From the IMG/VR virus record IMGVR_UViG_3300037760_000162, positions 1-37,977 of that record: DNA of 37,977 nt. One strand, written 5' to 3'. The position numbers and the translations under genes were made by a program. Positions 23,814 through 30,248 of this stretch are shown here, one piece after another (the first letter of the stretch is position 1; each line of letters starts with the position of its first letter). The DNA is from a virus. Taxonomy: Duplodnaviria > Caudoviricetes. A model generated the notes under the pieces. It saw only the letters and a program-made list of their open reading frames with translations. It did not search any database and was not told the DNA's origin.

Positions 23814-24140
23814 CTACCTTCCGCCAAGTTTCGCTCGCAAATCCGCCGTGGCCTGAACGGCTCGAGCCCGTAGCTCTACCAATTCTCGCTCGGCCCTGAT
23901 CTTGGCGAGCTGCTCCTCCCGGATGGCCAGGTCCGCCTTCCGGATCGCCATCTCCACGTTCCCTTGCTGGTATGCGCTCGAGCGGAGATAATCGCAATAT
24001 GCCCGGACCGATTTCTCAACCTCAATCGGGTCAGTCTTCTCAAAGACTTTCCCGCGCAACGCATTCGCTTCCTCTGGCTCGATACCGATCAGGCCTGCAA
24101 GTTTTTCCAGTGTCGATTCCATAGTTCCAATTCTTGCCAT
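23814..24140 (-). CDS. Lambda Nu1-like (small terminase-like) HTH/coiled-coil protein
   Basis: 'LEKLAGLIGI...SVRAYCDYLR' followed by a coiled coil resembles Nu1-type small terminase subunits; short. Confidence 0.45.
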   Translation of the reverse strand: MARIGTMESTLEKLAGLIGIEPEEANALRGKVFEKTDPIEVEKSVRAYCDYLRSSAYQQGNVEMAIRKADLAIREEQLAKIRAERELVELRARAVQATADLRAKLGGR

Positions 24141-24721
24141 TCTGTGGCCGCCTCATTGGCATCGTCGTCCGGAATGTCGGACAGGCGCACGCGTTGGTTT
24201 TCCTCGTTGGCAAATGCCTGATCCACGATGTTGCCGAAAAAAGCAGCGAGGTCCTTGCATGCGCTCACCTCGAGGAATTCCATCCGTGGGTTAGCGTTAA
24301 GGTTCATTGACGTTCGGAGCACGCATGATCGCCGGCCGGTAAATACGCAGAACTTGGCGTGCGTCTTCATGATCCGAATCTCGGATCCATGGTGGATTAG
24401 TTCTCGGCTCAAGCGCGGCTGCCGGCTCACGAAAATGTTGTCTACCAGCCACCGCATCTTCCCGCAAATACCCTTCTCCACGAGGTCAATCATCCGGGCC
24501 GCGTCGTATCCGGCAGCCGTCCAAGTCGCGATGTCGATCCGGTCAACTGGCGCCGCCCACTCGGCTAAATGCTCGATGGCATCGCTCAGCGAAAACTGGC
24601 CGTGAGTCAGGCATAAAACCTCGCGCCCCTCCTCAAAATCGGCGAGTGCTTCCGCGGCATTCCGCCGGCTGTAATGGTGGGCGAGATACCGTGGGCATTC
24701 GCGGGTGAGGTGGTCGGCCAT
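24089..24721 (-). CDS. Phospholipase D-superfamily (HxK) protein, probable nuclease
   Basis: 'IATWT', 'THAKF....', 'TSMNLNANPRME' match the HxK...SxN PLD signature; the canonical Asp is not evident. Confidence 0.65.
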   Translation of the reverse strand: MADHLTRECPRYLAHHYSRRNAAEALADFEEGREVLCLTHGQFSLSDAIEHLAEWAAPVDRIDIATWTAAGYDAARMIDLVEKGICGKMRWLVDNIFVSRQPRLSRELIHHGSEIRIMKTHAKFCVFTGRRSCVLRTSMNLNANPRMEFLEVSACKDLAAFFGNIVDQAFANEENQRVRLSDIPDDDANEAATEWQELELWNRHWKNLQA

Positions 24722-24722
24722 A

Positions 24723-27700
24723 TCACTTCCGGCGTGTCATCACAAAATCAATTGCCTGGATTGTCCCATCCGCCAGCTTGATGGCGTTGGCGGGCTTGAC
24801 GTCGCTTGCCACAAGATCGCCCTTCGTCCAAGACAAGGGGCCTTCCTCGATCGGCGTCCAACCAGCCGCCTCCATGAAGCTGATCAACTCGTCGGGCGAT
24901 GGGGCCAAGCCATCATATCGCGGCTGCGTGATGATCACGGCGCGGCCGTTGTCCAGCAAAGCTTCGACCTCGATCCCCGATTTAAATTCCCCTTCGAAGA
25001 GCCGGATTCGCTCTAGAAACTGGTCAAGCGTCGCAGGGGCAAGCTCGTTGTCCTCGACGGTGAACCCGTACCGGCCTAAGGCTGCGCCGAAAACAGCCTT
25101 AGTCACACGGTCGCTCCCCGGCGTCTCAAAGACGATAGATTCGCCGCCGGCTCCCAGAAGCCGAAGATTTCCTTTTCCCGCTTCCTCGAATCCGAGCATG
25201 GAATCGATGCGCGAAGCCAGGTTTCTCCCGATATCGGGATCACGCTGAAAAGCATCTGTGATCGCTGCCTCAATCTGAGGCCCGTTCAGCGAGGATCGGA
25301 ATTCTTCAGCGCTGCGTGTCGGCGGGCGGCCGCCGCGTGCGCCTTCAGCATCTCCTGGGATGCCGCCGGGAAGAACCTCTGCTCCCATGGCTGGGTCTCC
25401 GCCAAGCTCTTCCACGATCGCTTTGAGGCTTTCTTTTTCGGCTTCGGCATCCCTCAGCTTAGCCTCGGACGCCCTCGCCGCAAGAGCATCTTTGATGCTG
25501 GCGTCCCAGTTGGACCGCTCCTCAGCCGTAAGCCCGTCAATCGTTGCCTGCTCGCTCGCGCTCAGTTTCTTGCCCGCCAGTATCTTTTCCTTGGCCGCAC
25601 CCAGCTTGGCTGCCACTTGATCCGCTTCAGCTTTGGCCTCGACTATCTCGAGCGCCTGAACCGGATCGCTCGCTGCCAAGCCAGGCTGCTCCTGATTCAG
25701 CCGCTCCAAAGCATCCCGCCGGCGCTGCGTTGAATCTCCGCTCGCAATATCCGCCAATGCCTTCTCTGCCTTCTCCGCAGCCGCTTTGGCCTCGGCCTGC
25801 TTGACCAGGTTGATCTGCGCCTTGCTGGGAAAGAAGGTTGGCAGCGGCGCCGGTGCCGGGAACACGCCCTCGGTCTCCGGAGGGAACCCGCCGGCATCAA
25901 CCGCCGCCTCGAGCTGGGCGATGGTGAGCACCCGGTTGTCCTGGTCGGTCAAATCCTTGAGCGTGAGCTTGCCCTCCTTCCAGAGCGCGTATCGGCCAGG
26001 ACCAAGCGCCTTCCTGGCGAAGGCATCGCCCTTGCCCTCGAGCCAGTCGTCATGGCTCAGATCGGTAGAGACCTGGCCGTCCATCGACGCCTTGGTGTTG
26101 GGCTTGATCTGGCTGATCTCCGTCTCGTTGAAGCCTTGTGCCTTGAGGTGCTTTTCGAAGGCCTGCTCGAAGGTGATCTTCTTCTTCTCGGGATGCGGCT
26201 TGTCGGGGTTGGCCTCTGCTGCTGCCGCATCGACCTTCTTGTTCGCCAGCTCCTTCCACGAGTAGGTGACCGGGTTCTGTGTTGAACGACAATTCCCTGC
26301 AACTATTCCTTGCGCACTGTAAAAGTTGAGTGTCGTTTCAAGATTGTGAACGCGACCCCGGCCCTCCCACCTTCTGAGGCTGATAATCTTGTCCGCCTGT
26401 ATCTCGCCAAAGTCCCGATCAAGGATCTTATGCGCCAGTTCCACCTCACTAAGCACGGCGTTTGGAAGCACCTCCACGCCGCCGGAGTAACCCCTTGCCG
26501 AAGAACTCGCTTTGCTAAGAACACCCAGGAAATCGCGGTGGAAAGATTTCAATCGGGCGAGAACTATCGATCGATCATTGCCGACATTGGATGCGACCTT
26601 GGCACGTTCTATGGTTGGCTTCGGAAGCGAAACATTCGGGTCCGCGACAAATCCGAAGCGATGAAATACGCCTGGGAAATAGCGAGCGATGAGACCCGTC
26701 GTAAATGGCGTTCTACCTCGAACAAGGGGTTCAATCATGACCCCGACCAATTGGAGCAACAAGCGATAAAACGCGCCCAGCGCTCTGATTTCATCAGCCC
26801 ACAGGAAACCACCCTGCGGTCGCTTCTCGCTGAGCGTGGTCTCTGCTTCGTGCCCCAGGTCGCGGTGGGTCGATATAACTGCGACCTCTCCCTCGGCCCC
26901 GTCGCCGTGGAAATCTATTCCTCGGATTATTTCCGATACGGTAACAAAATCGGAGGATTCCTGAAGCGCACCCGTTACTTCCTCGATCAAGGCTGGACCA
27001 TGCTGTTGATAGAATTCTCGCGACCGAGGAATGGCGCCTTTTGTTGGGACAAACTCGCTGATTACGTCGCCGCCTTCTACGAGTCCGCCCGCCGTGACGA
27101 ATCCCTTCGTGGTAAGTATTGGATGATTCGGGGTGACCGTCAGCTCCTTACCCCCCGCGGTTTTGATGGTTACGAACGGACCCACGTAGTCCCGAGTGTA
27201 GCCCCTTAGTATCTCTTGGCCGTGAGTATCAATACATTGACTAGCAAGAACACATTGCCAGTGTGCTAAAACGCCGGGGAAAGCCTTGGTGTGGCCAATA
27301 GGCTTCAGGTCCAGGTCCCAAAGTTTTCCGCTTAAAGCTCGACAGATTATGGTTGTGCGAGAGTCTAACACTGAGCTCCACTGGATCGCCTTCACCAAGT
27401 CTCCCTGCTCTCGAATAGTGGCGATCCGGCTTGAGTTCGCGATGCTTTGCGTTGCGGTCCGCACGATGGCCTGGGCCTCCCGCTTCGAAGGCTCCACAAT
27501 GTCGTCCTTGTAGTTCTTGACCTTGGTCCCCTGGATCCGCTTTCGAATCTCTTCCATCGGCTCGCCCAGCGCGATCCCCTGCTGGATGGCGCCCTTGATC
27601 CGGCGTTGGGTGCTCAGCTCTTGCCCGTTCCACCAGGCCTCCATGGGAGATCCTTCGATCGCCGGGCCTTTCGCAACGGCGGTCAGTTGCGCCGCGGTCA

Positions 27701-28031
27701 GCGTCGGGATACCGACCTTGATGGCCGTCGACATGCTTTTCGCCGTCTGCTTGCTCGAGATGGTGGCGATCTTCTCGAGGTTCTCCGCCCCGACTTGCTT
27801 GATCACCTTGTACGCGTCCTTGATCTGGTCGTCGGTCCCTTTCAGGAATTTCTCAAGCTCAGCCTTCTTTGCCTTGGTCAGGTCCTCGGTGCTTAGCCGC
27901 TTGACCAGGCCCTTCTTGGTGTCCTCCAAGATCTTGACCACCTCGCCGCGCCATCCGGCCTCAACTCGGAGGAGGTTGAGCGAAAACAAATTCGCGTCGC
28001 TCAAGAGCTTGGCCGCCGTGTTGTCGCTCAT
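24723..28031 (-). CDS. MuF/SPP1-gp7 minor head protein with intein and C-terminal kinase-like domain
   Basis: MuF motifs 'IVRTA...W.SVLDSRTT.ICR.L.G...HWQ|CRS' are split by an intein. C-terminal 'LLGAGGESIVF...VTK...IITQP...SDVKPAN....G....IDF' is a kinase signature. Directly after the portal. Confidence 0.9.
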   Translation of the reverse strand: MSDNTAAKLLSDANLFSLNLLRVEAGWRGEVVKILEDTKKGLVKRLSTEDLTKAKKAELEKFLKGTDDQIKDAYKVIKQVGAENLEKIATISSKQTAKSMSTAIKVGIPTLTAAQLTAVAKGPAIEGSPMEAWWNGQELSTQRRIKGAIQQGIALGEPMEEIRKRIQGTKVKNYKDDIVEPSKREAQAIVRTATQSIANSSRIATIREQGDLVKAIQWSSVLDSRTTIICRALSGKLWDLDLKPIGHTKAFPGVLAHWQCVLASQCIDTHGQEILRGYTRDYVGPFVTIKTAGGKELTVTPNHPILTTKGFVTAGGLVEGGDVISEFVPTKGAIPRSREFYQQHGPALIEEVTGALQESSDFVTVSEIIRGIDFHGDGAEGEVAVISTHRDLGHEAETTLSEKRPQGGFLWADEIRALGAFYRLLLQLVGVMIEPLVRGRTPFTTGLIARYFPGVFHRFGFVADPNVSLPKPTIERAKVASNVGNDRSIVLARLKSFHRDFLGVLSKASSSARGYSGGVEVLPNAVLSEVELAHKILDRDFGEIQADKIISLRRWEGRGRVHNLETTLNFYSAQGIVAGNCRSTQNPVTYSWKELANKKVDAAAAEANPDKPHPEKKKITFEQAFEKHLKAQGFNETEISQIKPNTKASMDGQVSTDLSHDDWLEGKGDAFARKALGPGRYALWKEGKLTLKDLTDQDNRVLTIAQLEAAVDAGGFPPETEGVFPAPAPLPTFFPSKAQINLVKQAEAKAAAEKAEKALADIASGDSTQRRRDALERLNQEQPGLAASDPVQALEIVEAKAEADQVAAKLGAAKEKILAGKKLSASEQATIDGLTAEERSNWDASIKDALAARASEAKLRDAEAEKESLKAIVEELGGDPAMGAEVLPGGIPGDAEGARGGRPPTRSAEEFRSSLNGPQIEAAITDAFQRDPDIGRNLASRIDSMLGFEEAGKGNLRLLGAGGESIVFETPGSDRVTKAVFGAALGRYGFTVEDNELAPATLDQFLERIRLFEGEFKSGIEVEALLDNGRAVIITQPRYDGLAPSPDELISFMEAAGWTPIEEGPLSWTKGDLVASDVKPANAIKLADGTIQAIDFVMTRRK
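26292..27254 (-). mobile_element. Intein (321 aa) in the MuF gene
   Basis: Begins with Cys (CVLASQ); block B 'LTVTPNHPILT'; block F 'GRVHNLET'; ends 'GIVAGN' before a +1 Cys. Removing it restores HWQCRS. Confidence 0.88.
26310..27209 (+). CDS. Antisense-encoded HTH + Vsr/DUF559-like (PD-(D/E)xK fold) endonuclease nested in the intein
   Basis: Two HTH-like repeats (LVRLY...DLMRQFHLTKHGVWKHLHAAGV; ERFQSGENYRSIIADIGCDLGTFYGWLRKRNIRVR), then 'SPQETTLRSLLAERGL.F.PQ..VGRYNCD......AVEIYS...R..Y..DQGWTMLLI'. Possible true start GTG 26346. Confidence 0.78.
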   Translation: MRTVKVECRFKIVNATPALPPSEADNLVRLYLAKVPIKDLMRQFHLTKHGVWKHLHAAGVTPCRRTRFAKNTQEIAVERFQSGENYRSIIADIGCDLGTFYGWLRKRNIRVRDKSEAMKYAWEIASDETRRKWRSTSNKGFNHDPDQLEQQAIKRAQRSDFISPQETTLRSLLAERGLCFVPQVAVGRYNCDLSLGPVAVEIYSSDYFRYGNKIGGFLKRTRYFLDQGWTMLLIEFSRPRNGAFCWDKLADYVAAFYESARRDESLRGKYWMIRGDRQLLTPRGFDGYERTHVVPSVAP

Positions 28032-29672: not shown

Positions 29673-30248
29673 CTAGGCAAGCCCTAAAGCCTCCTCCGCA
29701 GTTATTCCCTCTTGCCGCATTTTCTGGCTAATTATCGCAGGGTTCACATCCATCTTCCGACAAGCCTCAGCCAAAGCGACACATCCCCAAGGAGTTTCTA
29801 CCTTAGTGTTCGAGCGCTTGTTGCATTGTTGCTGCTGCCGTGTAGCCCAACAACAATTCCCTGGGTCGTAACCCTTCTCGTTGTCTCGTCTTTCCAGCGA
29901 GTAGTCGCCAGGAGGCCTGGGGCCCATATCCTCCAGGAATGCCACAAAGCTGTTCAGCCAGCGACTGCACATTTTGATCCCCCGTCCGCCATAGTCAACC
30001 CATTTGGGGTGCTCTGGATTAGTGGTTCTTTGCTTGGCTGAAATCCACGCCTTATATTCAGGGTGTTGTTTCCCGTTTGCCCAGGTAATGCCAGTATTTT
30101 TAAACGGCTTAGCCAAAGCCTCTTCAAGAGACATTCCCCTTCGAAGCCTTTGCCGAAAAGCTGATTCCGGAATCGTATTAGCTTTAGCTGTAGCCGAGAG
30201 GTTGACACATCCGTTTTCCCGACGCACTATCGTCATGTTCGTCTTCAT
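29673..30248 (-). CDS. Free-standing HNH homing endonuclease
   Basis: 'EY.AW...K.R..NP....W.DYGGRGI.MC.RW..SF..FLEDMG.RP....SLER.DN..GY.P.NC.WAT..QQ..NKR'; start reassigned to ATG 30248. Confidence 0.9.
   Translation of the reverse strand: MKTNMTIVRRENGCVNLSATAKANTIPESAFRQRLRRGMSLEEALAKPFKNTGITWANGKQHPEYKAWISAKQRTTNPEHPKWVDYGGRGIKMCSRWLNSFVAFLEDMGPRPPGDYSLERRDNEKGYDPGNCCWATRQQQQCNKRSNTKVETPWGCVALAEACRKMDVNPAIISQKMRQEGITAEEALGLA

Follow-up and report, generated by a model that had tools for sequence, protein, structure and literature searches.

How can one stretch of phage DNA serve as a protein-splicing element on one strand and, as it appears, encode the homing endonuclease of that element on the other? 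The question is raised by IMGVR_UViG_3300037760_000162, a 38-kb phage record analysed here over its full 37,977 nucleotides (the window), in which the gene for a MuF-like minor head or head morphogenesis protein (24723..28031, minus strand, encoding a 1102-aa precursor) is the host extein of an intein at 26292..27254 on the same strand. A sequence-only reading of this DNA had noticed splicing blocks at the ends of the intein and, opposite to it, an uninterrupted plus-strand open reading frame (ORF) resembling a nuclease. The analysis of homologous elements described below establishes that the two-strand coding of an intein and an antisense protein with a nuclease fold is real. From sequence comparison and structural modelling we consider it very probable that the MuF intein carries, in antiparallel register, a protein made of two helix-turn-helix (HTH) repeats and a Vsr-like domain, that this protein is likely a homing endonuclease, and that it has a predicted antisense transcript of its own.

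The minus-strand ORF 28031-24723 was assigned to MuF by its match to Pfam PF04233 (E 6.6e-10), and also matches TIGR01641 and the PHROG head morphogenesis family. The intein, a stop-free translation of 321 aa (MuF residues 260-580), is inserted at AHWQ|CRSTQ. In the usual nomenclature of intein blocks (A, B, F and G) and of class 1 splicing chemistry, its N-terminal splicing region (27123..27254, minus strand) extends from Cys1 in block A to TPNH (residues 41-44) in block B, and all 19 aligned inteins have C1, T41 and H44. The C-terminal region (26289..26354, minus strand) contains block F (RVHNL, 26354-26340, within the motif RVHNLET at residues 301-307) and block G (..GIVAGN), followed by Cys+1 (26291-26289). 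All the splicing blocks first reported (C1, TPNH, VHNLET and AGN|C) are therefore present in the translation, and Cys1, the block-B TxxH, the terminal Asn with Cys+1 and the in-frame insertion, with empty alleles elsewhere, define a class 1 intein. The residue preceding the terminal N321 is Gly and not the usual His; HN is found in 46/79 homologues and GN in 4/79. The Pfam Intein_splicing match (E 7e-4) falls under the curated cut-off, and the family profile matches solved inteins with E 4.5e-9. As had been proposed, no real folded domain was found in the middle of the intein, which was assessed by Pfam, a PDB profile and the ESM Atlas: the intein frame of 19 homologues showed only Hint domains and no endonuclease domain by Pfam and PDB profile, and the best Atlas score, 0.79, is at chance level. 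The MuF precursor would be translated through the whole insert, whose Hint ends would carry out class 1 splicing through Cys1, the His of block B, the terminal Asn and Cys+1, the middle being a tolerated linker.

The plus-strand ORF (26310-27209; 299 aa counted from a TTG) is, as first described, uninterrupted and in antiparallel codon register with the intein, and the intein motif DFHGDG (26898..26915, read on both strands) is exactly the reverse complement of VAVEI (26901-26915) in the nuclease. It was also right that the ORF lies inside the intein. The TTG at 26310 was rejected as its start, because no homologue starts there; the likely start is GTG 26346, which gives an antisense ORF of 287 aa (26346..27209, plus strand), predicted to encode the homing endonuclease, in a frame open from 26310. 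Neither is the ORF confined to the intein middle, since its stop overlaps intein residue 16 and block B is covered. For the window copy alone, the chance of an open in-register antisense frame is P ~0.02-0.05 with MuF codon usage. As this is only modestly unlikely, proof was sought in homologues.

Two sets of inteins were assembled, both requiring a DFHGD-like motif and not an open antisense frame. A 17-nt dual-motif pattern retrieved 120 IMG/VR loci from 14/64 parts of the collection (~560 estimated in all), of which 111 match both the intein and the nuclease profiles. These 120 loci gave 63 full inteins, from which two identical ones and two whose ends were doubtful were removed; adding the window and 19 earlier loci, set 1 contained 79 inteins, 78 of them testable. 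Set 2 contained 65 inteins (71 full inteins from 89 loci found with intein-frame peptides, minus six identical), and removal of three near-identical sequences left 141 inteins in the pooled sets. The in-register antisense frame was open in 77/78 inteins of set 1, 63/65 of set 2 and 137/140 of the pool, bearing out the expectation that close homologues would keep it open, while each of the other four frames was open in 0-1 inteins per set. Over 17,828 codons of the antisense frame in set 1 there were 2 stops, whereas the same register over the exteins has 0.0143 per codon. The exceptions are L056 and L146, with true internal stops, which we note as candidate decaying copies, and L169, whose stop is upstream of a later ATG. 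The stop of the nuclease falls between intein residues -6 and 28 in set 1, mostly at 2 to 16, so that the nuclease ORF overlaps block B.

Selection was compared between the two frames in 15 of 23 pairs, with at least 50% identity, using an alignment score symmetric in both frames. In the middle of the insert (~180 codons) dN/dS was 0.99 in the intein frame vs 0.28 in the antisense frame, as anticipated from the window sequence. The relation was inverted in the N-terminal 65 residues (0.25 intein frame vs 0.83 antisense), in the intein C-terminal tail (0.09 vs 1.84) and in the extein (0.28 in its own frame vs 1.24 antisense). Substitutions in the middle, counted by intein codon positions 1/2/3, were 1037/414/627, most of them at position 1, which is position 3 of the nuclease codons. 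These results show that purifying selection acts on the middle as nuclease sequence, its evolution as intein being neutral, and that the reverse is true of the splicing ends.

AlphaFold, supplied with a 65-sequence alignment, predicted for the antisense protein two HTH units, a helical linker and an alpha/beta domain with pLDDT 87.1 (the single-sequence fold was poor, pLDDT 46). The two HTH repeats (residues ~9-45 and 58-94; 26370..26627, plus strand) correspond to helices of the model and match Pfam HTH_28 (E 2.4e-4) and 2LVS (E 3.7e-9); a conserved helical linker, seen in the model and in the family alignment, spans residues 102-146 (26649..26783, plus strand). The remaining domain, Vsr-like/DUF559-type (26787..27158, plus strand), was aligned with VIA-align to Vsr 1CW0 (Z 12.3, rmsd 2.2, 115 residues aligned), to I-Bth0305I 3R3P (Z 10.6, rmsd 2.7, 93 aligned) and to 3HRL (Z 9.5). 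The family profile matches 3HRL (E 5.6e-6) and 3R3P (E 6.9e-5); Foldseek on PDB found none at E <= 0.001, its top match being 3R3P (E 3.4e-3). The window protein scores 233 bits against a family profile built without it. Within the domain, D180 and E189 are invariant in 140/140 homologues and in the window copy, E154, Y177, N178 and R208 are near-invariant and kept in the window copy, and Q171 is also as in the family. A nuclease fold is thus predicted with high confidence, and the architecture originally read from the sequence, two HTH-like repeats plus a Vsr/DUF559-type nuclease, was recovered in the model. Two length classes were apparent in the family, inteins of ~270 aa with a one-HTH nuclease (L002, L007, L011, L012, L019 and others) and inteins of ~320 aa with two.

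The alignments also provide candidate expression signals for the antisense ORF. An ATG or GTG lies opposite the block-F His in 118/141 inteins, and 18 of the remaining 23 have one within -3 to +8 codons (no null was computed for these). Codon usage is skewed at this position: the block-F His is encoded by CAT in 101 inteins and CAC in 17, vs 23 CAT and 106 CAC for the block-B His (Fisher p 3e-28). The Leu that follows the block-F His is CTC in 99/134 inteins, vs 132/531 in exteins, so that a GAGG- or GGAG-type Shine-Dalgarno sequence appears on the other strand (97/141). Opposite block G, TATAAT is exact in 42/141 inteins and matched in at least 5 of 6 positions in 80/141, vs a mean of 27.7 (maximum 41) in 1000 synonymous recodings, and a TG precedes this -10 box in 57 inteins vs 12.7 under synonymous recoding. 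It is likely, then, that the expression signals of the family nuclease are written into the C-terminal codons of the intein, with TATAAT opposite the block-G Ile-Ile, GGAGG opposite the block-F Leu-Gln/Glu and ATG opposite the block-F His. The intein would in this way carry a self-contained antisense expression cassette and, as predicted, its own antisense transcript. No paper on embedded promoter, Shine-Dalgarno or start signals in these inteins was found, in a search outside of which most subscription papers lie.

In the window copy these signals are different. The usual start position of the family reads GCG, and a shifted His gives GTG at 26346, two codons away; the position of the extended -10 box (family consensus TGnTATAAT; 26298..26306, plus strand) holds a degenerate TGcAACTAT. 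Block F of the window copy, RVHNL, is common to three close proteins (P0004-P0006). A 152-nt contig from another sediment run (depth ~2) has ATG at 26346, a change silent in the intein frame (one contig), and L062, whose insertion site closely resembles that of the window copy, carries an ATG at this shifted position too. The window copy belongs to an RVHNL sub-lineage in which the start moved two codons, to 26346, and the Shine-Dalgarno was lost. For this sub-lineage the tests of selection and of the promoter draw on two short contigs, and a DNA pattern designed for it retrieved 0 IMG/VR stretches.

The sequence-only reading had placed a leaderless promoter in front of this start. A TTGCGC box (26310-15) does lie 30 nt before GTG 26346, and TTGCGC-17-TCGTTT (26310..26338, plus strand; 7 nt before the GTG) is an alternative candidate for a leaderless promoter, as yet unproven: TTGCGC is not enriched in the genome (24 sites vs 35.5 expected), a sigma-70 scan of 25800-27600 returned 0 sites, and TCGTTT is without the conserved -11 A. 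The intein residues Ala-Gln also account for TTGCGC. As a phage-specific motif it was rejected, being not enriched and having the same start-codon geometry at only one, 23799 (minus strand), of its 23 other sites. Elsewhere in the phage genome, 7/46 listed gene starts have a Shine-Dalgarno, and TTG-N17/18-CAnnnT boxes lie 5-8 nt before the starts at 30248, 29503, 23763 and 17372 (minus strand; no null was computed). Boxes of this type, together with the few Shine-Dalgarno sequences, suggest leaderless or Shine-Dalgarno-free translation in the host of the phage. The leaderless idea is plausible because several genes have TTG-N17-CAnnnT shortly before their start, and the loss of the Shine-Dalgarno in the window copy fits a genome where most genes are without one. 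With slightly better than even confidence, we propose that two-strand inteins are a large, old class common in phage head genes, whose splicing motifs double as promoter, ribosome-binding site and start codon, and that the window lineage, by moving a His codon two places, changed over to initiation without a Shine-Dalgarno and possibly without a leader. If this is true, one stretch of ~60 nt is both a catalytic peptide and a portable expression cassette.

Translated searches with the antisense protein (tblastn) matched 113/50,697 phage records, from phages of Salmonella, Gordonia, Pseudomonas, Escherichia, Vibrio, Aggregatibacter, Idiomarinaceae and Mycobacterium. In 13 annotated records the match lies opposite an annotated gene, mostly head or minor capsid and otherwise hypothetical, and is itself unannotated in all of them. 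The protein matches the MuF inteins of Gordonia phages Vivi2, Fosterous, Affeca, Angelicage and Malisha (E 2e-12 to 2e-18), and homologous antisense ORFs are found in minor capsid genes of Gordonia and Mycobacterium phages in PhagesDB. A metagenome scan with intein-frame peptides confirmed 346/590 stretches, and phmmer with the intein returned 3,878 clusters at E <= 1e-3 and 1,611 at 1e-10, an upper bound that may include other inteins. The family is therefore widespread, with ~500 IMG/VR stretches in addition to phages of Salmonella, Vibrio, Pseudomonas and Gordonia, a distribution that we did not find in print. Reading the flanks by eye, we also saw two-strand inteins outside MuF, in an apparent terminase Walker-B (L142, L147), a CMP/dCMP-deaminase-like gene (L017), a uracil-DNA-glycosylase-like gene (L049) and another gene (L206). 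Some MuF proteins (P0007, also P0008-P0014 with four matched stretches) apparently have several inteins of the family, those of P0007 including two only two extein residues apart, again by eye. A weak match (H140, E 7e-3; MN988561.1, 132435-132800) to an annotated 'homing endonuclease protein' of Rhizobium phage RHph_TM61 could be a free-standing relative.

Empty alleles were found as well. The MuF protein of L231 reads ..RLHFN-CRSV without an insert, and a contig of run X4 stops matching at 26292 and goes on as sequence resembling the MuF N-extein (read by hand); no joint skipping the intein was found in the four sequencing runs examined. Further, L074 and L088 differ at 45/80 extein third positions but only at 9/65 in the intein N-terminus, indicating that the intein is younger than the extein in some pairs. 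In a co-infection, the nuclease would cut the empty MuF allele near HWQ|CRS, and repair would copy the intein in.

Several points weigh against this explanation. The antisense ORF of the window copy has no Shine-Dalgarno and matches only 3 of 6 bases at the family -10 position. Its protein alone has no significant nuclease match in Pfam (MTES_1575, E 0.15), and with a profile score of 233 it falls short of the lower quartile, 260, among the sequences from which the profile was made; such a comparison puts the window copy at a disadvantage. The column-196 His, which aligns with H213 of I-Bth0305I, the putative general base, is present in 93/140 homologues and is Phe in the window copy, as in no other member; the column matching I-Bth0305I D222 is not conserved, and no conserved Asp is found at columns 200-212. 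Some sequences occur in more than one of the 15 pairs used for dN/dS, the window copy is in none of these pairs, and the codon and signal tests treat related sequences as independent. A protein search with the antisense ORF gave 493 candidates, none at E <= 0.001 among called proteins; this result fits such genes going uncalled, so it is no evidence of rarity.

Part of these observations would be explained if the family were an active homing element and the window nuclease a decaying remnant, no longer expressed or cutting. Apart from the lost ATG and Shine-Dalgarno, the degenerate -10 box and the unique Phe at column 196, the HTH region of the window copy departs from the family consensus at many places. 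We consider decay unlikely, since the frame is intact with D180, E189, E154, Y177, N178 and R208 all kept, the column-196 His is also absent in about a third of the members (47/135), and the RVHNL block is common to three close proteins. In the relative known from the 152-nt contig the shifted start is an ATG. Of its changes immediately beyond block F, two, read by hand, leave the nuclease sequence as it is and alter the intein. It is quite improbable, in our opinion, that the antisense protein is made and selected for something other than homing to the intein site, for instance excluding competing phages or regulating head genes. The partial conservation of the EDxHD His and the non-conservation of the final Asp would suit such a role, as would the presence of the family at unrelated sites (the MuF CxC site, a second MuF site, the apparent terminase Walker B and the deaminase-like gene), but the nuclease is confined to the intein in every member examined, MuF alleles without the insert exist, some pairs have an intein of more recent origin than the extein, and of the characterised folds the closest is that of a proven homing endonuclease. 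That the antisense ORF is just a by-product of a true domain folded from the intein frame, as the frequent openness of in-register antisense frames (see the P for the window copy above) and a match of the intein frame to phrog_15127 over residues 19-156 might suggest, is effectively refuted by the neutral dN/dS of the middle, by the finding of only Hint domains in 19 intein-frame sequences and by the confident, recognisable fold of the antisense protein. We keep, then, to a likely antisense homing endonuclease nested in the MuF intein.

The surroundings of the intein have features of their own. Outside the intein, the MuF protein ends in an extension resembling Kinase-PolyVal (24726..25259, minus strand; ESM Atlas score 0.97, PF18762), a lead only, unseen by Pfam on the whole MuF protein and by PHROGs on that stretch; with this end, MuF looks like a polyvalent head protein with a kinase-like cargo. 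Directly upstream of the MuF gene is a DUF4055 gene (29503-28031), which we take to be the portal, and just upstream of the latter a free-standing HNH endonuclease gene (29673-30248, minus strand; phrog_3377, E 1e-43), itself preceded by TTGACA-17-CAGGAT-8-ATG. The gene directly after MuF (24089-24721, minus strand) matches phrog_16945 'endonuclease' (E 5e-27).

This locus is a natural case of ~860 nt of two-strand coding in which selection is split between the strands, and it lends support to the view that homing endonucleases came into inteins when a free-standing gene invaded them. As gene callers miss the antisense gene, annotation would show inteins of the family as endonuclease-free in spite of their probable mobility. 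Testable predictions for the expression of a nested antisense nuclease come from the start, Shine-Dalgarno and -10 signals, and since cultured phages, among them Vivi2 and Affeca of Gordonia terrae and Snoke of E. coli, carry two-strand inteins of the family, such tests are practical.

An out-of-frame or anti-sense LAGLIDADG endonuclease was reportedly described by Gorbalenya in 1998 in a cyanobacterial dnaX intein. In the accessible part of the work of Phillips et al. (bioRxiv 10.64898/2026.09.14.751524), the LAGLIDADG cases resemble the window in having a separate overlapping ORF in a contiguous intein under purifying selection; the dnaX case is presented there as out-of-frame, and the word 'antisense' does not occur in that part. 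The dnaX cases differ from the window in the nuclease family and in the host gene. Closer in the protein itself is the I-Bth0305I/EDxHD family, whose members, according to the accessible sections of the two papers on it (Taylor et al. 2011, PMC3239194; Dassa et al. 2009, PMC2677866), combine N-terminal tandem HTH-type repeats with a C-terminal Vsr-like nuclease, as in the window. In our alignment the metal-binding Asp of I-Bth0305I, D196, and its beta-strand Glu correspond to D180 and E189. In the papers cited, the EDxHD genes are located in group I introns or separate the two halves of a split intein, whereas the window gene is antisense within a contiguous intein. We rejected strict EDxHD membership, because the His is variable in the family and absent in the window copy and the last Asp is not conserved; the protein would nevertheless work like an EDxHD enzyme.

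The closest precedent is that of Gosselin, Arsenault and Gogarten (bioRxiv 10.1101/2025.01.02.630785), whose accessible text describes full inteins of actinobacteriophages with an anti-sense VSR-like homing endonuclease matching 1CW0 and 3R3P, and cites earlier anti-sense LAGLIDADG cases. The sequence-only reading could not confirm how novel the arrangement is; in view of this text it is not new. The window has the features of these elements, an antisense nuclease in a contiguous intein, a helical stretch before a Vsr-like core with matches to the same two structures, and no middle domain in the intein frame. Their hosts, in the same text, include minor capsid proteins, whose inteins are all non-canonical; Affeca and Angelicage are named there only under an endonuclease VII-like cluster. 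Two differences emerge from the accessible text: such elements are called rare, whereas the family described here is large and extends far beyond actinophages, and the second ORFs are said to be typically outside the splicing domain, whereas here both block B and block F are overlapped by the ORF. The terms 'promoter', 'start codon' and 'ribosome' do not appear in the main text of the preprint. To a layout that is already published, our analysis adds the breadth of the family, the evidence of selection on both strands and the expression signals that are likely embedded in the intein.

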